NCBI GenBank assembly: GCA_048499675.1
Contig: JASNZL010000002.1
Location: forward strand, 40,138-104,137
DNA: 64,000 nucleotides
Source: Candidatus Zambryskiibacteriota bacterium
Lineage (GTDB): Bacteria > Patescibacteriota > Minisyncoccia > Phycocordibacterales > WO2-35-19
Direction of reading: 5' to 3'
Of the stretch, positions 8,585 to 56,887 are shown in pieces. The position numbers were made by a program, and so were the translations under genes. Under the pieces are notes generated by a model. That model saw only the letters and a program-made list of their open reading frames with translations, had not been told where the DNA came from and ran no database searches. Positions within the stretch are counted from its first letter, which is position 1. Every line of letters begins with the position of its first letter.

Positions 8585-8850
8585 TACTCCAAGGTATCAA
8601 ATATAATAAAATAAGTCAACCCAGTAGTGAATTTTGGCATTGGACTCCATCCGCGCATTGTATGCGATGCCAAAATCTACTACTGGGTCAATCCCCGCTC
8701 ACCAATTTTGGTATTATTGCGAGACAATCTTTTTCTTTGTTTTTAGTGTTCGGTTTTGATGACAAATTTAATAGCGAGTAAGTTATTGATGTTGCAATAT
8801 ATAAAATACCAAAATTTGTGGCATGGGTATACCCACTCACTAATCTTTGC
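8585..8850 (-). repeat. structured ~270-bp repeat in the sense leader of the rpsZ operon; inverted copy of 55188-55560
   Basis: The reverse complement aligns (~80-85% by eye) with 55188-55560, including gtgagYgg..cccatgccacMaattttggtat, ..cgaacactMRaaacaaagaaaa.., aataccaaaattRgtgagcggggattgaccc and the gtagtRRattttggcat..atgccaaaatYYactac hairpin. Confidence 0.75.
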
Positions 8851-9036
8851 TTATAAATTAGATTATATCTTTTTTATATGATAATCTTTTTAGTACGGAG
8901 AGTTAACTCCGTGGATGAAAAGCAAACTTCTTTGCTTTTCATCCGGTCTGCGAACGGAAGTGAGCAGAATTGCCGTTGCGAGCTTTGCGAGCAGGCAATA
9001 GGTGGACGAAAGGGACTTTCGACCACTGCCATAAAC

Positions 9037-9124
9037 GGAGAGTTGGCTGAGTGGTCGAAAGCGCCTCACTGCTAACGAGGTGAGCCCTTTAAAGGCTCCG
9101 AGGGTTCGAATCCCTCACTCTCCG
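9037..9124 (+). tRNA. tRNA-Ser (anticodon GCT)
   Basis: Cloverleaf: acceptor GGAGAGT/ACTCTCC, D-arm with GG, anticodon loop CTGCTAA, long variable arm GAGCC-CTTTAAA-GGCTC, T-arm CGAGG-GTTCGAAT-CCCTC, discriminator G; no encoded CCA. Confidence 0.8.
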
Positions 9125-9258
9125 CTTGAGCTTCGCGAAAGCGGAGAGTGAGGTCTAGCTTTTGTGCAACAAAAGCGTAAGACGGATTCGAAGCCCGATT
9201 GAGATTTTTTAGGAGGACAACGAACTAAAAAATCCAATTGGGGTACTGAAGCTGTAAG
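9125..9258 (+). repeat. 134-bp element directly 3-prime of tRNA-Ser; direct repeat of 14922-15055
   Basis: Near-identical (2-3 mismatches) to 14922-15055; starts with a hairpin pairing the tRNA acceptor 3-prime strand; ends ...ggggtactgaagctgtaag. Confidence 0.8.
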
Positions 9259-9259
9259 C

Positions 9260-9299
9260 TTCGAATCCCTCACTCTCCGCTTGAGCTTCGCGAAAGCGG
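9260..9299 (+). repeat. 40-bp duplicate of tRNA-Ser 3-prime end (T-loop to end) plus 20 nt downstream
   Basis: Identical to 9105-9144 (ttcgaatccctcactctccgcttgagcttcgcgaaagcgg). Confidence 0.85.
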
Positions 9300-9351
9300 T
9301 GTGTATTGGACGAAGTTCGAATGTATTTCGGACAAAATCCGCAGGATTTTG

Positions 9352-9490
9352 ACGAATGACACTTGCGCCTCGCGCTCCCTTCGGTCGCGAACCAAAACCA
9401 AAAATTTCCTTACCAATCCTTTTTCGGCGGGGGGTGTGGGGGGAGCCGGCAAAAAATGGAAAGGAAAATTTTTGGTTTTGGTTCCGACGC
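9352..9490. repeat. left copy of an imperfect inverted repeat bracketing the 9.5-14.65 kb cargo; internally a 21-bp-stem hairpin with a G-rich loop
   Basis: Its reverse complement matches 14660-14795 (~85%); inner stem gaaccaaaaccaaaaatttcc / ggaaaatttttggttttggttc; loop contains cggcggggggtgtggggggagccggc. Confidence 0.75.
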
Positions 9491-9552
9491 TTCATAAATA
9501 CAGTATATGGCAATTTGGAATAATACACAATGGAATATTATTATATAAATAT

Positions 9553-9774
9553 ATGCCAAGAGCAATTTATCAAGATGACCACAAGAAAATCGTTGAGCGC
9601 TTGAAACAAGCACGGCTTGAGGTTGGTCTTGGGCAGGTTGAAGTTGCTGAGAAGCTTGGTAGAACTCAGTCGTATGTCTCAAAGATTGAATCAGGGCAAC
9701 GGCGCTTTGATGTTTTGCAACTCAAAGAGTTTGCAAAACTTTATAAAAAATCCTTGGATTTTTTTGTTAAATAA
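9553..9774 (+). CDS. XRE-family helix-turn-helix transcriptional regulator (C-protein-like)
   Basis: LKQARLEVGLGQVEVAEKLGRTQSYVSKIESGQRRFDVLQLKEFAKLY is a classic Cro/C1 HTH; the start is placed at the internal ATG because the upstream part of the track ORF lies in the repeat. Confidence 0.7.
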   Translation: MPRAIYQDDHKKIVERLKQARLEVGLGQVEVAEKLGRTQSYVSKIESGQRRFDVLQLKEFAKLYKKSLDFFVK

Positions 9775-9775
9775 C

Positions 9776-10858
9776 ATGAATCATAACCATGAAATTATAA
9801 TTACTAAGCAAGATGTTGTTCCGTACATCTATTTTGTATGTTCAATGGCTCAACGAGGCAGGATGTATGGGGGTCTTAGTGGAAAAAGTGATTATATTGG
9901 AGGGGTTTTTGATCGTTGGATAAATATAATTCCCGAAAGTGTAATTTTCAACAAATATTTTTTGCCCAGAATAGCCAATAATCTATCTGTCATTTCTGAC
10001 TATTATGAGTACGACCCAAAGAAATCCGGCATAGCCCCTGATGTGCTTGGTATAAGAGCTGGTCAAGACGCTAAGCCTTTTGTTGAATATGTAAATAAAT
10101 GGCAAGCATTAAATAATGCACCGCAAATTGAGGTAAAATCCTTCAAAAAAGCGCAGTACATGGTTAGTTTGAGGAACCAAGGGTACGACAATAAATATCT
10201 TGTCATGGTTGAAACAAATCTTGATAGCGATTACTTATTGCCTTTTTTTGAACAAACAGTCTTTAGTGAAGATGTCTACAACAAACTTAAAATGGACGAT
10301 AGAGTTTTTATAAAATCTAATGTTAACAATGACTTATCTTCCGTTACAAAAATTAATAGAAATAATACGGATTTAGGCTCACTAAAACTTATAACAGTTT
10401 GTTCAGCAAAAGATTTTATGTCTTTTTCAACTCTCTGCTCCTCAAATGAGAGCCCGATTTATGTAAAAGAAGTAAATGAAACTAGAACTGCAAAAACCAC
10501 TACAATTACAACGCCTTTATCTAATTATCTAACAAAAAATAGTAACAATTTATATAGTTGGAATAATAATTTGTTAGACAAAAATAACAAACATAAAATA
10601 CTAGATGTTTATATTGATGACATTCAAAACATTCATTTTGTAAAAAATAGTAAAAGCTCTATTACTATTACAACAACAGGTAGAGCCACTATAAATAATG
10701 TGGTTTTGGAAGCAAATAAAACCTATATTATTAAGTTCCAACTATTAGATCGTTCTTCAAACAATGGTGAGGAGTATTTTATGCATAAGTCCGTTATCGA
10801 TAAAATACCTAGTAAAGAGGACATTATGTTGGAGTCTATAAAGCAATATATAAAATAG
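9776..10858 (+). CDS. hypothetical protein, candidate restriction endonuclease partner of the adjacent methyltransferase
   Basis: 360 aa with no recognised family; weak PD...EVK pattern (IAPDVLGI ... IEVKSFKK); sits between the C-protein-like regulator and the convergent C5-MTase. Confidence 0.4.
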   Translation: MNHNHEIIITKQDVVPYIYFVCSMAQRGRMYGGLSGKSDYIGGVFDRWINIIPESVIFNKYFLPRIANNLSVISDYYEYDPKKSGIAPDVLGIRAGQDAKPFVEYVNKWQALNNAPQIEVKSFKKAQYMVSLRNQGYDNKYLVMVETNLDSDYLLPFFEQTVFSEDVYNKLKMDDRVFIKSNVNNDLSSVTKINRNNTDLGSLKLITVCSAKDFMSFSTLCSSNESPIYVKEVNETRTAKTTTITTPLSNYLTKNSNNLYSWNNNLLDKNNKHKILDVYIDDIQNIHFVKNSKSSITITTTGRATINNVVLEANKTYIIKFQLLDRSSNNGEEYFMHKSVIDKIPSKEDIMLESIKQYIK

Positions 10859-12436
10859 TTATTGCATTGCTCGCATCATTTCTTTTGCCACAGCTTCAAT
10901 AACAGGAACACTAACGGAATTTCCAGCTTGTTTGTATAGTGCCGAATCAGAAATTTTTGGAAGTTTGTAATTTTTTGGAAAGCCTTGAATTCTAAAACAC
11001 TCTAACGGAGTCAATTTTCGTATACCCTTTTTATCTTTTATGATTGGCACATTATGTCCACCTGTCCCCATGTTTGCAGTTAAAGTTGGGCAAACACCAC
11101 TTTTATTTTCTCTAACATATTGTCTGCGCCATTGATACACTTTACCTTCTTCCTTTACGTCATTTTTTAATCTTTCATATAATGGCTTGCCATTATAGTA
11201 ATATTTTTCAGGCACGTTTTTCTCCAATAGATCGGTTACTTTTTTCGTGAGCTTTATTGGTTTTGGAAACTCAAACTTATCAAAGTAGTTTTTATTTTTG
11301 AACCCTACAATATAGATACGCTCTCGATTTTGTGGCACATTTCCATACTCCATAGTATTTAGAACTTTTGATTTTACAAAGTATCCAAGATCTTCAAGTG
11401 TTTTTTCTATAACCTCAAAAGTTTTCCCCGAATCATGGCTCTTTAGATTTTTTACATTTTCAAGCAAAAAGCCTTCTGGTTTTCGTGCCTCAATGATCCT
11501 TGCAATATCGAAAAATAAATTTCCTCTATCCTTTTTATCTTTAAAGCCGTGCCTATATCCAGCAATAGAAAAAGCTTGGCAAGGGAAACCTCCTAAAAGA
11601 AAATCAAATTTAGGCAAATCATCAATTCCAATTTTTCGTATATCCTCAACTATTAATTTTGAATCTTTAAAATTAAGATCGTATGTATCTTTACATTGTG
11701 GTTCAAAGTCATTAGCAAAAACTGTTTGGAATCCAGCATTTTCAAAACCGATCCTTATCCCTCCTACACCCGCAAATAAATCTATTGTATTAAAACCATG
11801 TTTAGTTTTTTGTTTTGGCTTGAATTCTTCTTCGAACTGTATATTTCTAATTACTTGGACAACAACACCCCGAACTTCAACCTCTTTTCTATAAAATGGG
11901 AGCATTGATTGATTTCTCGGTTCAAGCCTAAACCGTGATTTTTCTCTATACAACTTTTTGAGTGTTGCTTCATTATCATCAATAATTGCAACGACTGTTT
12001 GTCCATTTTCTGCAACAGACTGTTTTTTTATCACAACAACATCTCCGTCAAAAATACCCTCGTCAATCATACTTTCTCCGACAACTCGTAGAGCATAATA
12101 ATCTTTAGAGTTTTGTATATTAGGATCAACAAGAGAGATAAAATCTTCTCGATTTTCTATTGCCTCAATAGGCTGTCCTGCCGCAATATTGCCTAAAATC
12201 GGAATTTCAACAACAGATTTTATTTCTTTCATGAGAGATAAACTTCTTGGAGAATTTTCAGACCTTGAAATATACCCCTTTGCCTCTAGGGAATTGATAT
12301 GCTCGTGAATGGTGGAAACTGCTTTTAGTTTTAGCTCTTTCCTGATCTCTTCAATCGTTGGGGAAATACCATTTTCAGAGATATATGTTTTTATAAAATC
12401 AAAAACCTGTTTTTGCTTTTTTGTAAGTTTAGACAT
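10859..12436 (-). CDS. fusion protein: complete LexA-like repressor (wHTH + S24 peptidase) fused to a Dcm-type DNA cytosine-5 methyltransferase
   Basis: N-terminal ~200 aa is LexA-like: MSKLTKKQKQVFDFIK...EIRKEL...EAKGYI, IAAG cleavage-site context, GESM serine, LKKL lysine, VVAII..ATLKKLYRE. C-terminal ~320 aa has m5C MTase motifs: DLFAGVGG (I), GGFPCQAFSIAG (IV), LLENV (VI), QNRERIY (VIII), GNSVSVPV (X). Confidence 0.8.
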   Translation of the reverse strand: MSKLTKKQKQVFDFIKTYISENGISPTIEEIRKELKLKAVSTIHEHINSLEAKGYISRSENSPRSLSLMKEIKSVVEIPILGNIAAGQPIEAIENREDFISLVDPNIQNSKDYYALRVVGESMIDEGIFDGDVVVIKKQSVAENGQTVVAIIDDNEATLKKLYREKSRFRLEPRNQSMLPFYRKEVEVRGVVVQVIRNIQFEEEFKPKQKTKHGFNTIDLFAGVGGIRIGFENAGFQTVFANDFEPQCKDTYDLNFKDSKLIVEDIRKIGIDDLPKFDFLLGGFPCQAFSIAGYRHGFKDKKDRGNLFFDIARIIEARKPEGFLLENVKNLKSHDSGKTFEVIEKTLEDLGYFVKSKVLNTMEYGNVPQNRERIYIVGFKNKNYFDKFEFPKPIKLTKKVTDLLEKNVPEKYYYNGKPLYERLKNDVKEEGKVYQWRRQYVRENKSGVCPTLTANMGTGGHNVPIIKDKKGIRKLTPLECFRIQGFPKNYKLPKISDSALYKQAGNSVSVPVIEAVAKEMMRAMQ

Positions 12437-12522
12437 ATTGCATTAAAAATTCATTTGCGCTACAATTTCATTGTAACCGAAAAGAAGCCGAAAAGTAAAG
12501 CGAGATTATCCACAATAATATT

Positions 12523-13764
12523 ATGAACGAACATTTTGAAAAATTTATAGATAATATCTCCCTGACTAAAAATCAAAGAGATGATTCTCTTACAAAATAT
12601 ATTGGAATATGCAAAACTCTGAATTCTGAATTCTACAGCTCAGAATATTCTGACTCTGTGAAGTTTTTGTTTGGCTCCTATAAGAAGAAAACAACCATTT
12701 CACATACAGGAAAAGATGTTGATGTTATTTTTAAAATCCCACAAGAAAAATTTGAAGAGTACCAAAAGCAAGAAAATGGACCCTCTAACCTGTTGACCAA
12801 AGTTAAAAATACTCTGAAAGACACTTATTCAACTACAGACAAAATAAAAAATTGGACAAAAGTGGTGGTGGTTGATTTCTCTACTTTTAAGGTAGAGATA
12901 CTCCCTGCGCTTGAAAAAGATGATGGTAAATTTATTGTTCCCAACACTGGAGATGGAGAAGATTGGATTATTTTTGATCCAAAAAGCGAAATAACGAGTT
13001 TTAAAAATTCAAATAACTCAAACAATGGGTTAACAAGAAACTTAATTAAAATTATCAAGAAATGGAAAATTGAAACAGGAAACGTAAATATAAAAACTTA
13101 CATTTTGGATAAGTACGTCATAGATTTTTTGAGTAATTATTCTTTTGCAAGTTATCCGAAAACCATTTTAGATTTTTTTGAATATTTGCATAAAAAAGAA
13201 AGTGGAACAAATATAGAAACAGCAAAAAATAGAGCAAAAAAAGCATATGCTTTTTACGAAGAAAACAATATTGAAAAGGCGGTAGAAGAATATCAAAAAA
13301 TCTTTGTGAATGGTTTCCCTAGAAATATTAAAAAAGAAGTTGGTGACTTTACAGATTACGTTAAAGCTCCAAATGAACAATTCATAGAAGATTTTTTTAG
13401 AGTTTCTTTAGATAAAAAAATAGACATTAATATTGAAACACGATGTAAACCTAAAAAAGGAGGCTTTATGAAGAGCATATTGTTGAGTAGATTACCAAAT
13501 GGTTGGGTATCTAAAAAAGATGATCTTGAGTTCGTTCTTAATACTAAAAACTTATCTGGGGAGTACTTAACTAAATGGAAAGTAAGAAATTTTGGCGAAG
13601 AAGCAACAAGAGATGGTAAACTCAGGGGAGAGATACTTGAGGATAATAATGGGATTCATAAATATAAAGACGGTGCGGCATTTTATGGAGAACATTTTTT
13701 AGAGTGTTACATTATTCAAAATAATATATGTATCGCGAGAAAAAGAGTTGTTGTACCAATATAG
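12523..13764 (+). CDS. pol-beta-superfamily nucleotidyltransferase resembling CD-NTase/SMODS (cGAS/DncV-like)
   Basis: FLFGSYKKKTTISHTGKDVDVIF fits the GS-x(9-13)-DhD signature, with a third acidic strand VVVVDFSTFKVEILPA; 413 aa; followed by a 2-TM partner. Confidence 0.45.
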   Translation: MNEHFEKFIDNISLTKNQRDDSLTKYIGICKTLNSEFYSSEYSDSVKFLFGSYKKKTTISHTGKDVDVIFKIPQEKFEEYQKQENGPSNLLTKVKNTLKDTYSTTDKIKNWTKVVVVDFSTFKVEILPALEKDDGKFIVPNTGDGEDWIIFDPKSEITSFKNSNNSNNGLTRNLIKIIKKWKIETGNVNIKTYILDKYVIDFLSNYSFASYPKTILDFFEYLHKKESGTNIETAKNRAKKAYAFYEENNIEKAVEEYQKIFVNGFPRNIKKEVGDFTDYVKAPNEQFIEDFFRVSLDKKIDINIETRCKPKKGGFMKSILLSRLPNGWVSKKDDLEFVLNTKNLSGEYLTKWKVRNFGEEATRDGKLRGEILEDNNGIHKYKDGAAFYGEHFLECYIIQNNICIARKRVVVPI

Positions 13765-13768
13765 AAAT

Positions 13769-14332
13769 ATGGATAAAAACAATCTATCAATCATAAGGCA
13801 ACAGTTTGCACAATGTGTGTTTACTCACAAGGTCTTGGAAAAGGCTTCTGATAGACTTGAGAAAGTAAATACGAAGATCAAATGGGCTAACGTCATAATT
13901 TTAGCCCTTGTTGTGGTTTTTCTTGTATTGCCAATTAGATTTCCTGAGTACTCATTTTTGAATGATGTCGCTATAGCCATAACAGTCTTTGAAATTTTAT
14001 TTGTCTATTTTCAAAAGGAATTTTCTTTTGAAGAAAAAGCAAAAGATCACAAAAAATTTGCCTTAAAATTTCTAGAGCTTCGTGATAAGTACAAAAATTT
14101 TATTGTTGATATAACAAACGGATTAGATAGTGGAGAAATCAGAACAAAGAGAGACCTTTTACAAGAACAGTATCAGATTATTAGTAGTTTAACCCCACAA
14201 ACTGAGTATATTGACTATAAAGAAGCGCAACTTGCTTTGTTGGGAAAAAATATTTCTGATGAAGAATTTACATGGTCTGACAAAGAGATAGATCGTTTTT
14301 TACCGAAAGAGTTAAGATTCGAAGAAGATTAA
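13769..14332 (+). CDS. small 2-TM protein, candidate SLATT-like effector partnered with the nucleotidyltransferase
   Basis: Two hydrophobic helices (WANVIILALVVVFLVLPI, VAIAITVFEILFVYF) then a charged C-term; overlaps the end of the upstream gene, suggesting coupling; an alternative TTG start lies at 13748. Confidence 0.4.
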   Translation: MDKNNLSIIRQQFAQCVFTHKVLEKASDRLEKVNTKIKWANVIILALVVVFLVLPIRFPEYSFLNDVAIAITVFEILFVYFQKEFSFEEKAKDHKKFALKFLELRDKYKNFIVDITNGLDSGEIRTKRDLLQEQYQIISSLTPQTEYIDYKEAQLALLGKNISDEEFTWSDKEIDRFLPKELRFEED

Positions 14333-14390
14333 AGAGGGTTTCGCTTGCGCGCGCATGGGAGGGTTGGGGCAAGCGCAATATGATTTGCTT

Positions 14391-14426
14391 GTGCCATTCG
14401 TCAGTTTGGCACAATCCGCTTTTTTA
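14391..14426 (+). terminator. rho-independent terminator after the 2-TM gene
   Basis: gtgcca-ttcgtcagtt-tggcac then aatccgctttttt. Confidence 0.5.
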
Positions 14427-14659
14427 GAGTTACCACGAACGCCGTCGAAGTCACAGAGCGAACACGAAGCAAGTACCGAGCAGGCATCGTGAGCGAATGC
14501 GAACGGCAAATGCGAGGTGATTGCGAAGTGTGAGCGGACGACAGAGCTATCACAAAACGCGGAGAGGAAGCGCCTCGCCCGACGCGAATGACGGAGAAAA
14601 GGACGGACGGAATATTGCCACCATGCTAAAATATACATACGAGTCCTTTTTGGAGGAAT

Positions 14660-14795
14660 GAAGCGGCGGAAACAAAACCATAAAATTTCCTTTCATTTTT
14701 TGAGCGGCTCCCCCCACACCCCCCGCCGAAAATGGATAGGTAAGGAAATTTTTGGTTTTGGTTCGCGACCGCAGGGAGCGAGGCGCGCACTGTTC
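14660..14795. repeat. right copy of the inverted hairpin repeat (partner of 9352-9490)
   Basis: ggaaacaaaaccataaaatttcc ... ggaaatttttggttttggttc stem with loop gagcggctccccccacaccccccgccg. Confidence 0.75.
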
Positions 14796-14921
14796 GCTTC
14801 ACCACGCCTGCCTGCGCCGAGGCTTCGGCAGGCAGGCAATCCGAGCGTACGATTTGGGTTCAAAGCCACCACGCGCTCCGCGCGTGCGAAGTGGGTTCGG
14901 GCAAAGGTTAGTATCTCACCG

Positions 14922-15055
14922 CTTGAGCTTCGCGAAAGCGGAGAGTGAGGTCTAGCTTTTGTGCAACAAAAGCGTAAGACGGATTCGAAGCCCGATTGAG
15001 ATTTTTTAGGAGGGCAACGAACTAAAAAATCCAATTGGGGTACTGAAACTGTAAG
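14922..15055 (+). repeat. second copy of the 134-bp tRNA-Ser-downstream element, followed by a tRNA-like 3-prime fragment with encoded CCA (15056-15079)
   Basis: cttgagcttcgcgaaagcggagagtgagg...ggggtactgaaactgtaag, then tttcgactcctgtcccatccacca, which parses as T-loop, T-stem 3-prime, 7-nt acceptor 3-prime, discriminator and CCA. Confidence 0.75.
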
Positions 15056-15094
15056 TTTCGACTCCTGTCCCATCCACCAAGTTTTACATTCAGC

Positions 15095-15127
15095 AAAAAG
15101 AGCGGGTTACTTCCGCTCCTTTTTGGG
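15095..15127. terminator. bidirectional terminator hairpin (gagcgg / ccgctc) with T runs on both strands
   Basis: aaaaagagcgggttacttccgctcctttttggg. Confidence 0.5.
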
Positions 15128-15130
15128 TTT

Positions 15131-15349
15131 TCAGACCCGAATGTGCTTGGCGAGCCAAGGAGTCTCTCTCGGTTGCTCGGGTAGTCCAACAAGAACAAAC
15201 CCTGAGTCAAAACGAGTTTGCTCGCGACGATTGTGTTCATCCCGTTGACCGTTGGCCTGAAATCCGCTTTCCGCAAGCAGATTCGTACCGCAACGGTCAC
15301 AAGCATCTCTTGACTCGAACTTACATGGACACACACTAGCATTTGGCAT
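15131..15349 (-). CDS. small Cys-containing protein in a GC-rich segment (possible zinc-binding)
   Basis: 72 aa MPNASVCPCKFESRDACDRCG...; SD-like gagagggg 4-5 nt upstream of the ATG; terminator directly downstream; GC content far above the local norm. Confidence 0.35.
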   Translation of the reverse strand: MPNASVCPCKFESRDACDRCGTNLLAESGFQANGQRDEHNRREQTRFDSGFVLVGLPEQPRETPWLAKHIRV

Positions 15350-15521
15350 TTTTCCCCTCTCTTTCTAGCGCTCCCGCAAGAGCATCTGTATTAATATTAC
15401 CACAAAAAGCACACTTACGCAAACAACTGTGGATATTGTTATGCCGGCTTAATTTGATAGAATTATAAATATTACTACTAATAAAGTTTCTAACTATTTA
15501 TAAGCATTTTTAACTAAAATT

Positions 15522-18752: not shown

Positions 18753-19038
18753 CCCGTACACTAAATTTTGTTTCGGAAAAGTTTTATTGCACTAGATATT
18801 CTTTTTAGGAGCTGACACCTAGCTTGGCCTCGAAGCTTTAGACTTGATTCTCTAGATCTTGCTTCATTATCTACACTGTAGGCTTCATAATATAGAAGTT
18901 TGAGAGGTATTCTAGATTTAGTTGATAAAACTTTTCCAGAATTATGTTCTCCTAACAGCTTCTTTAGATTATTAGTGGAGCCAATATACAAATCTCCATC
19001 CTTGAGACTTCCAAGTAATATACATAGAGCATAATTTA
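18753..19038 (-). pseudogene. degenerate GIY-YIG (YhbQ/UPF0213-like) nuclease gene lacking a start codon
   Basis: Reads ...YALCILLGSLKDGDLYIGSTNNLKKLLGEHNSGK..., homologous to the intact copy at 56633-56887 (FYVYVLKSFKDSELYIGSTNNLKRRFEEHQKG); no in-frame ATG, and a TTG start loses the GIY motif. Confidence 0.55.
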
Positions 19039-33957: not shown

Positions 33958-36141
33958 ATGCAGAAACTAAGTGATTTAAAAAGGCAGTTTTTGGAATATA
34001 TAGAAATTGAGAAAGGTCGTTCGCTTTTAACTATAGAAAACTACGACAGATATTTAACTCGTTTTTTGGAATTTTTGAAAAGCGAAGAACCAAAAGATAT
34101 AAATGACAATTCTGTTAGAGAATTTCGTCTTTGGCTCAATAGACAACCGGCAAGTAAAATAAAGAAAAATGCAGACACCTTGTCTCGTAGAACACAAAAC
34201 TATTATCTAATTGCTCTTCGCGCCTTTCTCAAATATCTTGCAAGACAAGGAGTTACTTCCCTATCGCCCGAAAAGATAGAGCTTGCCAAGACCCCAGAGA
34301 GATCTCTTGACCTAATCACAGACGACGAGCTTATTCGCCTCCTCAAATCCCCTTCTGGCGACAGTTTGAAAAGTTTGCGGGACAGAGCGATGTTACACCT
34401 CCTTTTTTCTACCGGTCTTCGTGTTTCTGAACTTTGTGCTCTTGACCGCGATATAGATTTAAAAAAAGACGAGCATTCTATTCGAGGAAAAGGTGGGAAA
34501 ATAAGGGTGGTTTTCTTTTCGGATGAAGCCAAGAAAGCTTTAAACGATTATTTAGAAAAAAGAAAAGACCTAAACGATGCAATGTTTATCCAACTTTCAA
34601 AAAATTTAAAACCAAATGCAAAAGGCGAAGATATGCGAATAAACAAACGCAGTGTCGCAAGAATTGTAAAACAATACGCCATCAAAGCCGGAATTTCCAA
34701 AAAAGTAACCCCGCATACACTAAGACATTGTCTCCACCCAGATACACTTATTCATTTGCCTTACACCATAACAAGCGCAAGGGAACTATATTTGTCCAAC
34801 ACAAAAAGAATAACATCGGTAGACCTTAATGTTGGGAAAACCGTAAAATCAAACATAATTCAAAAGAGAAAATATAAATCACTTGATATGATTTCTCTTT
34901 CTGCTAATGGTTATCAAATTTCTGTTACTCCAGACCACAAATTTTTTACTCTTGGAACAGATGGAATAGTGGAAATTAATGCAAGAGATATAAAGAAAAA
35001 TCAATTCATTGCTGGTGTTAAGAAAATAACAATGAATAGTTCAAAAAAATCAAGAAGTAAAAACAATTGGAGAATAATTGGTTATATTTTGGAGGATGGA
35101 ACAATAAGTGAGAAGAGGCGGGGGGTCATAATTTCTGATAAGAATCCAACTTTTATAGAATTTTATAAAGATTTAATTACTTCAGAATATAAACATAAAC
35201 CAACAATAAAAAAAATAGAAGGCGCAAATAATGTTATTTTAAATTTTTATTCAAAACAATTTGTTACTTATTTGAGAAAAATAGGAATAACAGAGAAATC
35301 ACCTCTCAGAAGAGTTCCTAAAATTTTATTCTCCCAAAGCAAAGAAGTTATAGCAGAATTTTTGGCTGGATATTACGACGCTGAAGGAAATGAGGGTAAT
35401 TCTATTAAATTTTTCTCTTCAAGTGAAATGCTTTTGCGAGATATTCAAATGTTATTATTAACTTTCGGGATTGATTCTCATTTATATAAAAGATTGAGGA
35501 GAGTAAAACTACCAAAAGGAAAAATTATAAGCCACAAAATGTTATATCTACAAATATTACACAAACCAGATCAGGAACTTTTTATTAAGATTGTTCCCAC
35601 CCTAAAAAAATTAAAAGCAAAAAGCTTTTTTGCAGGGGATAAAATTCCAGTCAGAAATATGTTAAAAGACATATATATAAATCTACCAAAAAAATGGCAC
35701 AATTTTGCTCAATATCTAAAAATAGATGGGAAAATTGATATATATAGATATGTTGGTAACACAACCAAAACAGTCCCCACAAAGAAAGTTTTGGAAAAGA
35801 TAATCAAATATTTTAGAGATGCTAAATGTAATGACCCGAGATTAGATTTTATGCAAAAACTCATTGATTCTGATATTCAGTGGCTTAGGGTTCAAAAAGT
35901 TGAAAGGTGTAAATATAATGGACCAGTATATGATTTCGCTGTAAATAAATATGAGAATTTAATAACAAACGGTTTTTTGTCGCACAACTGTTTTGCGACT
36001 GACCTTTTAAGCAATGGTGCTGATCTTCGCTCCGTTCAAGCTCTACTCGGCCACGCAAATATAGGCACAACTCAAGTTTACACCCATGTCACAGACCGCC
36101 ACCTCCGCGACATCCACAAAAAATTCCATAACAAAAAGTAA
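33958..36141 (+). CDS. XerC/XerD-family tyrosine recombinase interrupted by a 420-aa intein with LAGLIDADG homing endonuclease
   Basis: N-terminal SAM-like domain, catalytic region ...[19 protein letters not shown]...TPHTLRH, then CLHPD...[11 protein letters not shown]...[13 protein letters not shown]...GFLSHN, then [34 protein letters not shown]. The host exteins sum to ~307 aa. Confidence 0.85.
34729..35988 (+). mobile_element. intein (Cys1 ... His-Asn, then +1 Cys) with two LAGLIDADG motifs
   Basis: 1260 nt in frame; begins TGT directly after HTLRH and ends CAC AAC directly before TGT TTT GCG ACT. Confidence 0.8.
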
Positions 36142-55187: not shown

Positions 55188-55560
55188 CTTGTGAGCGGGC
55201 CTGCCCATGCCACCAATTTTGGTATCTTAAATATTGCAACATATATAACTCGCTAGTTATGGGATAGGTCACCAATATCGAACACTCGAAACAAAGAAAA
55301 GGGTCGTATTGCAATAATACCAAAATTAGTGAGCGTGCCTGCCCATGCCACCAATTTTGGTATCTTCTTGTAGAAACACCAAGGAGAGTATTGATTTGGG
55401 TATATCGCCAGATCCAATGTGGCGCAATGTTTTAATATGTAATCTTTCTACAATACCAAAATTAGTGAGCGGGGATTGACCCGTAGTGAATTTTGGCATT
55501 GGTTATAAACCATGCACTTCGTGCCATGCCAAAATCTACTACGGGGTTGCTTTTTTCTCC
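55188..55560 (+). repeat. structured repeat in the rpsL leader (partner of 8585-8850) with an internal ~135-bp tandem duplication and a terminal hairpin plus T tract
   Basis: Two gtgagcgNgcctgcccatgccaccaattttggtatctt modules (55190 and 55323), then aataccaaaattagtgagcggggattgacccgtagtgaattttggcat...atgccaaaatctactacggggttgcttttttc. Confidence 0.75.
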
Positions 55561-56632: not shown

Positions 56633-56887
56633 TTACCCCAAACTTCCTTCTATTCGTTCTTTCAAAAACCTTCTAGCATTTCCTCTCAATTTTAGTGCTT
56701 GCTCTCTGAGGCGAGCATCTTTTTCACTTTTGTATGCTTCATAGTATACTAATTCAAACGGTCTCCTAAATTGAGTAGAAAAAGATAACCCCTTTTGATG
56801 TTCTTCAAATCTTCTTTTAAGGTTATTTGTACTGCCTATGTATAATTCAGAATCTTTAAAACTTTTTAATACATAAACGTAAAACAT
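56633..56887 (-). CDS. GIY-YIG nuclease family protein (YhbQ/UPF0213-like), intact copy
   Basis: MFYVYVLKSFKDSELYIGSTNNLKRRFEEHQKG...; lies antisense between rpsG and fusA. Confidence 0.75.
   Translation of the reverse strand: MFYVYVLKSFKDSELYIGSTNNLKRRFEEHQKGLSFSTQFRRPFELVYYEAYKSEKDARLREQALKLRGNARRFLKERIEGSLG

Follow-up and report, generated by a model that had tools for sequence, protein, structure and literature searches.

The nearest described relatives of the system considered here are the EcCdnF04-SLATT6 and EcCdnF05-SLATT6 operons, which restrict phages in E. coli and belong to the antiphage signalling systems based on cyclic oligonucleotides (CBASS) of type I, about 40% of which have an AGS-C domain fused to their cyclase, such fusions having been described in clades B, F, G and H only; AGS-C has been proposed to tune phage sensing, and phages that escape AGS-C-bearing type I CBASS carry mutations in virion assembly proteins (bioRxiv 10.1101/2023.05.21.541620). 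Defence systems are both dense and diverse in Candidate Phyla Radiation (CPR) genomes, with the highest values in Paceibacteria (PMC12259885). We have analysed a stretch of 64,000 nt (hereafter the window) from contig JASNZL010000002.1 of a Candidatus Zambryskiibacteriota bacterium, in which a gene for a cGAS/DncV-like nucleotidyltransferase (CD-NTase, or cyclase) is followed by a gene for a small membrane protein of the SLATT_4 family. On the strength of sequence and structure predictions, we consider it very likely that this pair constitutes a two-gene type I CBASS operon. It is an ordinary, already catalogued and widespread kind of CBASS that also occurs in other CPR bacteria; as such it adds little to what is known, inasmuch as PADLOC and Pfam recognise its architecture, which has been validated in E. 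coli and is found in many CPR genomes, and it would confirm second-messenger abortive-infection immunity in ultra-small episymbionts. Both reading frames exist where the first-pass annotation had placed them and its interpretation is supported, but in presenting the pair as a notable antiphage system for a CPR-like bacterium it overstated the novelty.

The identity of the cyclase, which had been proposed as a CD-NTase with a Pol-beta signature, is borne out by family profiles and by predicted fold alike. Residues 2-164 match Pfam SMODS with 95 bits (7e-27; cutoff 26.5), the C-terminus matches PF18134 (AGS_C) above the gathering score and over model positions 4-128 of 129 (95.8 bits, 3e-27), and the PADLOC oligonucleotide-cyclase model PDLC00796 covers the protein from end to end (1.8e-90). 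The AlphaFold2 model, built on a 50-sequence alignment (mean pLDDT 89.4), shows an N-terminal lobe of the alpha/beta kind and a helical one, with a beta-rich domain of its own at the C-terminus, where seven beta-strands across residues 301-412 give the make-up of an AGS-C domain. When this model was compared with the Protein Data Bank (PDB) by Foldseek, the best matches were CD-NTases (E 4.5e-16 to 1e-8; TM-scores, on the target, of at most 0.74), in the order CdnD of P. aeruginosa ATCC27853 (PaCdnD, 4.5e-16), Cap2-bound CdnD02, CdnC, DwCdnB, BfCdnB, DncV, CdnE and CdnG; a profile of the family likewise met PaCdnD at 3e-27, all other matches among its 33 PDB hits being CD-NTases, cGAS or OAS. 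The active-site motif reads F-G51-S52-Y-K-K-K-T-T-I-S-H-T-G-K-D65-V-D67. The signature had been given as G-S-x11-D-V-D; the motif is indeed there, but its spacing is GS-x12-DxD. Across an alignment of 50 cyclase homologues (28-96% identity), S52, D65, D67 and E125 are invariant, whereas D118, which lies in the strand VVVVDF and is the residue of the acidic strand that had been pointed out, varies. Because E125 (in VEILPA) is invariant and D118 is not conserved, the third catalytic acid is better placed at E125. In the same vein, D65 and D67 share alignment columns with the catalytic D62 and D64 of PaCdnD (D-I-D in the wild type, N-I-N in the inactive D62N/D64N mutant entry 6P8J), and E125 lines up with PaCdnD's third catalytic Asp (VSVDAVPAF). 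As read from these alignments, the active site is intact and of the Pol-beta type.

The partner protein had been expected to be a SLATT effector of some 190 residues with two transmembrane helices, and this description holds. The 187-residue product matches Pfam SLATT_4 (PF18186) with 110 bits (9.3e-32; cutoff 27), NCBIfam SLATT_4 (NF033632) with 108 bits (cutoff 55) and the CBASS '2TM effector' model of PADLOC at 2.6e-40. It has two hydrophobic segments, from about residue 39 to 58 and from 62 to 81, in which the 19-mer Kyte-Doolittle maxima reach 2.6 and 1.9; a short loop connects them, and stretches rich in Lys and Arg lie on either side. The predicted structure (pLDDT 87) consists of helices throughout: a long one at the N-terminus leads into the first transmembrane helix (TM1), and a second (TM2) and three or four C-terminal helices follow; the helical hairpin seen in this model, added to the profile matches, makes the protein a member of SLATT family 4. 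Invariant polar residues are found in the N-terminal helix (R10, H20, K21, E24), in TM2 (E75, Q82) and in the C-terminal helices (K95, R105, D114, R128, Y135, Y150). Two start codons are conceivable, TTG 13748 and ATG 13769. Since ATG 13769 (MDKNNLSIIRQQ...) is the start in 47 of 47 aligned homologues, with the pattern M-(D/N)-K-N-N-L-S-I-I-R-Q-Q, and is also the start in the gene call of a Logan contig, the effector gene most likely begins 5 nt past the cyclase stop; the TTG start appears unlikely by the same comparison, and the overlap of the two genes that had been described is probably not real. The genes lie on the same strand, and no terminator-like site was seen in the gap between them. 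No Cap2/Cap3, E1/E2/JAB, HORMA, TRIP13 or type IV accessory gene was found in the five-gene island that holds the pair or in its flanks (ribosomal proteins and tRNA-Ser on one side, a small membrane protein and RecG on the other), and the system is therefore assigned to type I, as had been suggested from the lack of HORMA, TRIP13 and E1/E2 genes.

A scan with a degenerate pattern, run over one genome per GTDB species, recovered cyclase relatives at 346 loci. Among the best 80 of these, at least eight belong to CPR bacteria (Ca. Paceibacter, Gracilibacteria, Kaiserbacteria, two Saccharibacteria, Paceibacteria, Nomurabacteria and Magasanikbacteria), and the remaining hosts include Proteobacteria, Bacteroidota, Firmicutes, Actinobacteria and others. 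In about half of these 80 loci a SLATT_4 gene directly adjoins the cyclase homologue on the same strand, either upstream or downstream. Relatives of the SLATT_4 protein at 45-95% identity are abundant, several of them bearing the name 'SLATT domain-containing protein' in records of Patescibacteria, Peregrinibacteria and Falkowbacteria. One locus of another assembly (L094:487-2329) pairs a SLATT_4 protein of 85% identity with a cyclase of only 42% identity whose divergence is even along its length; such a pairing fits the known modular reshuffling of CBASS parts, where the effector would have been kept while the cyclase was swapped or diverged strongly. Compared with the Ca. Paceibacter locus (67% amino-acid identity), the Nei-Gojobori ratios of non-synonymous to synonymous substitution (dN/dS), rough values as dS is saturated in this comparison, are 0.18 for the cyclase (0.16 for the nucleotidyltransferase part, 0.24 for AGS-C) and 0.12 for the effector, which is compatible with purifying selection on both genes.

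Several observations weigh against a straightforward CBASS assignment. The cyclase scores below the curated 200-bit cutoff of both NCBIfam CBASS_cyclase_a (104.1) and CBASS_cyclase_b (45.5), and judged by these scores it is a relative, not a member, of these narrow equivalogs. Its PDB neighbours are solely structures of clades D, C, B, A, E and G, with the clade-D PaCdnD the closest, whereas the clades with described AGS-C fusions are B, F, G and H only; no CD-NTase clade, and hence no product, is assigned. As to the effector, a Foldseek search of the PDB gave no solved structure that resembles it (best E 0.45), and it has no recognisable nucleotide-binding domain, be it SAVED, STING, a beta-barrel or another known sensor domain; the step from signal to effector rests on analogy for these two reasons. 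Finally, the nearest cyclase homologue in a genome, that of Ca. Paceibacter sp. bin98o (L002:6241-6243), reads TAA in frame at codon 81 in place of the CAA (Q81) of the window, which points to either a pseudogene or a sequencing error; on the former alternative such systems do decay.

It is tempting to propose the following course of events for the pair, by analogy with its relatives. The Ig-like AGS-C domain would likely be the input or regulatory module of the cyclase; phage infection, the trigger in this family, would activate the enzyme, which through G51-S52, D65, D67 and E125 would turn NTPs into a cyclic di- or tri-nucleotide. The co-transcribed SLATT_4 protein would then sense this nucleotide with its cytoplasmic helices, whereupon its two-helix hairpin might oligomerise and permeabilise the membrane, so that the cell would die or be arrested ahead of phage release. 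Both the activation of the effector by a cyclic oligonucleotide and the protection from phage are thus borrowed from better-known cases. The features discussed here and below are gathered in Table 1.

Table 1. Coordinates of the features discussed; positions without a locus handle refer to the window.
Feature	Position	Strand	Evidence or remark
tRNA-Ser(GCT), landmark of variable site	9037..9125	+	ARAGORN, Rfam
Duplicate of tRNA-Ser 3' end	9105-9149 copied at 9260-9304		155 nt downstream
151-nt direct repeat, outside both arms	9118..9268 (left), 14915-15065 (right)	+	Repeat search, blastn; 97% identical
Left arm, inverted partial copy of outer part of GC-rich element	9300..9495	+	Inverted repeat, metagenome-locus coverage
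HTH (XRE-type) controller-like protein, 73 aa	9553..9774	+	NCBIfam HTH repressor-type matches, all below cutoff
Putative restriction endonuclease, 360 aa	9776..10858	+	Place in controller-endonuclease-methyltransferase order; convergent with methyltransferase
LexA (DNA-binding + S24 peptidase) fused to C5-cytosine methyltransferase (LexA-Dcm), 525 aa	10859..12436	-	Pfam LexA_DNA_bind, Peptidase_S24, DNA_methylase; divergent from cyclase
Divergent intergenic region LexA-Dcm/cyclase, 86 nt	12437..12522	.	Candidate shared promoter/operator
CD-NTase (CBASS cyclase), 413 aa	12523..13764	+	Pfam, PADLOC, model, Foldseek, PaCdnD alignment
Nucleotidyltransferase core of cyclase	~residues 1-270		With G51-S52, D65, D67, E125
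AGS-C Ig-like domain of cyclase	residues 285-413 (nt 13375-13761)	+	Pfam AGS_C
SLATT_4 two-transmembrane effector, 187 aa	13769..14332	+	Pfam SLATT_4, PADLOC, hydrophobic helices, model
Full conserved GC-rich non-coding element, ~565 nt	14335..14900	+	3 nt past SLATT stop; conserved in 38-79 of 80 metagenome loci
RelE/ParE-like pair, 95 aa + 86 aa	43429-43981	+	Second protein RelE/ParE-like by eye
Serine recombinase genes, other loci	L100:2009-3622, L157:1954-3606, L129:3-1547, L135:94-1632		
Serine recombinase genes, further loci	L122:1-1560, L127:5936-7483, L096:4871-6796		
LexA-like genes upstream of cyclase homologues	L007:1544-2221, L009:5092-5925, L011:5068-5694, L039:5228-5878		LexA_DNA_bind and/or other HTH + Peptidase_S24

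The surroundings of the pair have led us to consider how it came to lie where it does. Between two inverted repeats there are exactly five genes, which encode a helix-turn-helix (HTH) controller-like protein, a 360-residue putative endonuclease, a LexA-Dcm fusion, the cyclase and the SLATT_4 effector, and which make up a cassette of 5.4 kb; the restriction-modification (R-M) module that had been placed in the same island is thus adjacent to the pair. Beyond the effector gene lies a GC-rich non-coding element, an inverted copy of part of which forms the left arm (9364-9495 against 14658-14789, 89-91% identity). The GC-rich non-coding DNA runs on for about 500 nt past the element (14901-15426); within it are the second copy of the 151-nt repeat and, near 15092-15123, a hairpin resembling a terminator that the sister genome has too. 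Sister contigs are 92% identical to the window in the ribosomal operon and carry other genes downstream of tRNA-Ser(GCT): the variable segment occupies 8637-15426 in the window and 2.7 kb in the sister, where a HEPN protein and a 147-residue protein follow the tRNA (L085:7294-9503) and a LAGLIDADG-like homing-endonuclease gene stands between S14 and the tRNA. The duplicate of the tRNA 3' end and the 151-nt repeat look like remnants of att sites left by integration at the tRNA; no clear target-site duplication was found at the cassette. A contig from another sample (L082) is without the 155-nt duplication. The same five genes recur at 87.6% nucleotide identity in two other samples, on contigs of 5.2-5.4 kb that end in the arms. 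We considered whether a Logan contig ending in this manner could be an excised form and rejected the idea, as an assembly break is expected at an inverted repeat. From these comparisons we read the CBASS pair as interchangeable cargo of a family of recombinase-associated, repeat-bounded cassettes at a tRNA-Ser hotspot.

This family is seen more fully in metagenomes. A 22-nt motif taken from the cargo-proximal end of the arm occurs in at least 120 metagenome contigs, of which 80 loci were fetched (among L095-L174). Exactly two copies of the arm are present in 29 of the 80, always facing inward and 1.9-6.1 kb apart, and the arms are about 100% identical within a locus over 150 to more than 366 nt and about 90% identical between loci. 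The full element, of about 520 nt, is present at just one of the two ends, where the distance to the last co-oriented cargo gene before it is mostly between a few and a few tens of nucleotides. Folding of 25 copies with RNAalifold gave 84 pairs, 10 of them with compensatory changes (UA/CG 13:11, GC/AU 15:10 and AU/GC 15:9, for example), which suggests a folded RNA or single-stranded DNA; the preference for one strand is weak (-181 against -174 kcal/mol). The element has no Rfam match at the gathering threshold or at E<=1 and none in plasmid or phage collections, and a single contig of IMG/VR contains it. As for the cargo, most of it is R-M genes, namely HTH controllers, Dcm, LexA-Dcm, N6/N4 methylases, an EcoRI methylase with GmrSD/HNH and type III res/mod, to which are added a 1336-residue SF1 helicase, TyrRS and an oxidoreductase/kinase pair. 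Ten of the 80 loci have, just outside an arm and pointing away from it, a gene for a large serine recombinase (Resolvase + Recombinase + Zn_ribbon_recom, 513-551 residues if complete); these calls rest on Pfam for five scanned genes and on an HMM built from those five for the others. Where it could be checked (L096 and L127), the arm on the recombinase side is the short one, and a similar recombinase gene (L089:7209-8849) adjoins an R-M unit with LexA-Dcm. Transfer RNA genes abut some of the units. One cargo set with an 834-residue LexA-containing protein is found beside a recombinase (L100) and beside a Fic gene (L132 and L170), so the same cassette sits in different contexts. It is worth adding that the slot held by the cyclase and the effector in the window is filled by a ThsB-like TIR protein and an 8xMP membrane protein in L122 (5111-5729), which has the same controller, endonuclease and LexA-Dcm module, and in L089-L091 (L089:3067-3916), whose LexA-Dcm is 88% identical and which, in L089, has a Bsp6I-type endonuclease.

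With this setting in mind, one may ask whether the pair serves the cassette more than the cell, that is, whether it is mainly an addiction or stabilisation module that kills cells which lose or disturb the element. The company it keeps speaks for such a role, as it is cargo of a repeat-bounded cassette together with an R-M system, itself a classic addiction module, and as the cassettes related to it carry mostly R-M genes; moreover, the TIR and 8xMP genes that stand divergent from the same or a closely related LexA-Dcm suggest interchangeable modules of an enzyme and a membrane killer. Against this, CBASS lacks anything like an antitoxin that could set off killing by decaying, the type I CBASS of the same architecture that were tested act on phage, and neither a cyclase nor a SLATT gene was found in any of the 80 fetched arm loci, whence the pair is not a core part of the cassette element; we therefore hold an addiction role to be improbable. 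A related concern is that the genes, for all their intact look, are a remnant without activity on an island that has no recombinase and is decaying. The window has no large serine recombinase, about 65 nt are missing from inside the left arm and the Ca. Paceibacter homologue has its premature stop, but both reading frames of the window are full length with all invariant residues present, their dN/dS is about 0.1-0.2, and copies that are near-identical or 87% identical have intact reading frames in several samples, all of which makes the remnant a distinctly improbable reading of the pair.

Two further readings bear on what the enzyme does. In a guard of the Panoptes kind, a constitutively made nucleotide keeps a 2TM effector inactive until phage sponges or nucleases deplete the signal and thereby set the effector free. 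Panoptes systems have the two-gene layout of nucleotide synthase and 2TM effector in common with the pair, and the sequence is silent on whether the ligand activates or inhibits; the enzyme of the window, however, is a SMODS CD-NTase with AGS-C and not a minimal CRISPR polymerase (mCpol), and the AGS-C/SLATT type I CBASS that were tested act as conventional CBASS, so that we give a guard of this sort very little chance. Even less can be said for an enzyme of another Pol-beta clade (MNT/AbiEii, KNTase, CCA-adding or poly(A) polymerase) that would be paired with a membrane protein by coincidence. A match to Pfam MTPAP-like_central does exist below threshold (E 0.0034, 17.9 bits, cutoff 27), but every strong match by profile or fold is a CD-NTase, AGS-C is a domain peculiar to SMODS and adenylyl/guanylyl cyclases, and the adjacency of cyclase and SLATT_4 recurs across phyla. 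No enzyme of these other clades appears among the 50 Foldseek matches listed or the 33 PDB profile hits, and this reading, which the first-pass annotation had itself named as the alternative outcome of a profile and fold comparison, is effectively refuted.

Returning to the type I CBASS operon that we favour, its neighbours raise the question of how it might be controlled. Small HTH genes homologous to the first gene of the cassette stand just inside the arm in many related cassettes. The putative endonuclease has no Pfam, NCBIfam or PADLOC match. Methyltransferases 88-94% identical to that of the window (L088, L089) are paired with a 187-residue RE_Bsp6I enzyme, and a near-identical methyltransferase hence has a non-homologous endonuclease partner. 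The LexA part of the fusion scores 70.8 bits with PF01726 and 97.2 bits with PF00717, and the protein matches TIGR00498 lexA with 196.6 bits (3e-58; cutoff 110.95) and TIGR dcm at 8e-104. It keeps the A86-G87 site, S122 and K160/K161, as an autocleaving repressor of the LexA family does, along with the methyltransferase motifs FAGVGG, PCQ, ENV and QNRER. Such fusions are very common: over 120 protein clusters with identities of 80-97% were met across many CPR lineages, and several of them bear names from Moranbacteria, Paceibacterota, Parcubacteria, Yanofskybacteria and Taylorbacteria. NCBI labels them 'transcriptional repressor LexA', and our literature search found no paper on them.

The 86 nt between LexA-Dcm and the cyclase hold a near-palindrome, TACAAT-TTC-ATTGTA (12461-12475), and two CCGAAAAG repeats (12477 and 12488). 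The region upstream of LexA-Dcm is conserved even where the divergent neighbour is another gene, with the elements TTTCGG-N-TTTTCGG and the near-palindrome TTACAAT-NAA-ATTGTAGCG, and in the window this conserved region takes up the entire intergenic space. A promoter-like site, TTTACT-18-TACAAT, lies on the minus strand, the palindrome overlaps a -10-like hexamer, and no sigma-70-like promoter for the cyclase was found on the plus strand above the scan thresholds. The palindrome TACAAT-N3-ATTGTA occurs once in the window and is not significant by itself, at least one match being met in 40% of shuffles; that it may be a LexA operator is offered as a hypothesis only, for which its conservation upstream of LexA-Dcm orthologues is the sole support. 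Given that the promoter region is shared with the LexA-Dcm gene, an SOS-type control of the CBASS operon through LexA autocleavage is plausible. Stand-alone LexA-like genes are also found directly upstream of cyclase homologues, and co-oriented with them, at four loci (a gammaproteobacterium, a Saccharibacteria metagenome-assembled genome, an acidobacterium and an unclassified metagenome-assembled genome), with SLATT_4 downstream in three of the four, which makes a recurrent three-gene layout in different phyla. Our literature search found no paper that links LexA-type repressors to CBASS. CapW and CapH/CapP are the known CBASS-linked regulators; if such control is true, LexA-Dcm and the LexA-like genes would form a third class beside them.

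Taken together, these observations allow a broader and much more tentative proposal, which we put forward as a possibility and regard as doubtful. The arms and elements might define a so far undescribed family of CPR defence cassettes of 2-6 kb that lie beside tRNA genes and have inward-facing inverted GC-rich elements as their bounds, one end showing a structured form of about 520 nt; the large serine recombinase encoded just outside the short arm would mobilise them in trans or in cis. CBASS would be one swappable cargo of the type 'signal enzyme + small membrane killer', for which TIR and 8xMP stand in elsewhere, and under phage attack RecA-stimulated autocleavage of LexA might de-repress it through the shared control region, as a second, abortive-infection layer behind R-M. 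If the cassettes are real mobile units, this would explain how CPR bacteria with tiny genomes swap their defence modules.

Some other features of the window may be recorded here. A RelBE pair had been described as lying near the CBASS genes; the only RelE-like pair that we saw, by eye, which is probably the one meant, is about 29 kb off and outside this island, and a phmmer search that used toxin and antitoxin sequences as queries gave no match. A XerD-like tyrosine recombinase of 727 residues (33958-36141, plus strand) is split by an intein with a LAGLIDADG homing endonuclease, and its 90% cluster includes intein-less forms of 307 residues. A dispersed repeat of about 145-190 nt (80-92% identical, inverted) lies at 8663-8849, upstream of the tRNA-Ser region, and at 55191-55547. 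Two minus-strand reading frames of 76 and 84 residues (18761-18991 and 56633-56887) have the motif YIGSTNNLKK/R...EH in common; they are GIY-YIG-like by eye and may be paralogous. Proteins of the window are also found on an NCBI contig of 106,419 nt and in Logan assemblies of SRR21762701, and the cluster of its S14 protein at 90% identity includes one named from a 'Patescibacteria group bacterium'. Loss of ribosomal protein L30 is typical of CPR bacteria; in the sister contigs S5 and L15 are adjacent with no L30 gene called between them, in the window they are 34 nt apart, and attribution of the window to CPR is reasonable.

How does the locus compare, then, with systems that already have a name? 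PaCdnD (PDB 6P82/6P8U/6P8J), its closest solved relative, has the CD-NTase fold, GS, DxD and third acid in common with the cyclase of the window; unlike the latter, it is a protein of 300 residues from a type III, HORMA-regulated system and lacks AGS-C, and the two are about 18% identical, with Glu as third acid in the window and Asp in PaCdnD. The effectors Cap14, Cap15 and Cap16, reportedly described by Duncan-Lowey et al. in 2021, are said to be small inner-membrane proteins with one or two transmembrane helices that are thought to disrupt the membrane once the signal is bound, and to bear recognisable ligand-binding domains (SAVED, beta-barrel and NUDIX). The SLATT_4 protein resembles them as a small membrane protein with two transmembrane helices, and it differs from them in being all-helical with no detectable nucleotide-binding fold. 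With regard to control, CapW (WYL) and CapH/CapP are repressor modules that stand beside CBASS and respond to DNA damage or phage, much as a LexA-type domain lies divergently 86 nt upstream of the cyclase in the window; unlike them, this regulator joins a LexA DNA-binding domain and an S24 autoprotease to Dcm, and its control of CBASS is putative. Integrative islands associated with tRNA genes and large serine recombinases offer one further comparison, and pdif modules bounded by inverted recombination sites another. The cassettes share with these a discrete unit, swappable defence cargo, inverted conserved bounds and the adjoining tRNA genes, and with the islands, in 10 of the 80 related loci, a large serine recombinase just past one arm; they depart from both in their long (130 to more than 360 nt) and GC-rich bounds and in the structured element of about 520 nt that one end carries. 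In having no recombinase of its own, the copy in the window also departs from the recombinase-bearing islands. The nearest counterparts remain EcCdnF04-SLATT6 and EcCdnF05-SLATT6. They have a SLATT of family 6 and a gammaproteobacterial host, whereas the pair of the window has a SLATT of family 4 and a CPR host; like them, it has no Cap2/Cap3 or HORMA/TRIP13 genes and unites, in a two-gene operon, a CD-NTase that ends in AGS-C with a small SLATT effector of two transmembrane helices.

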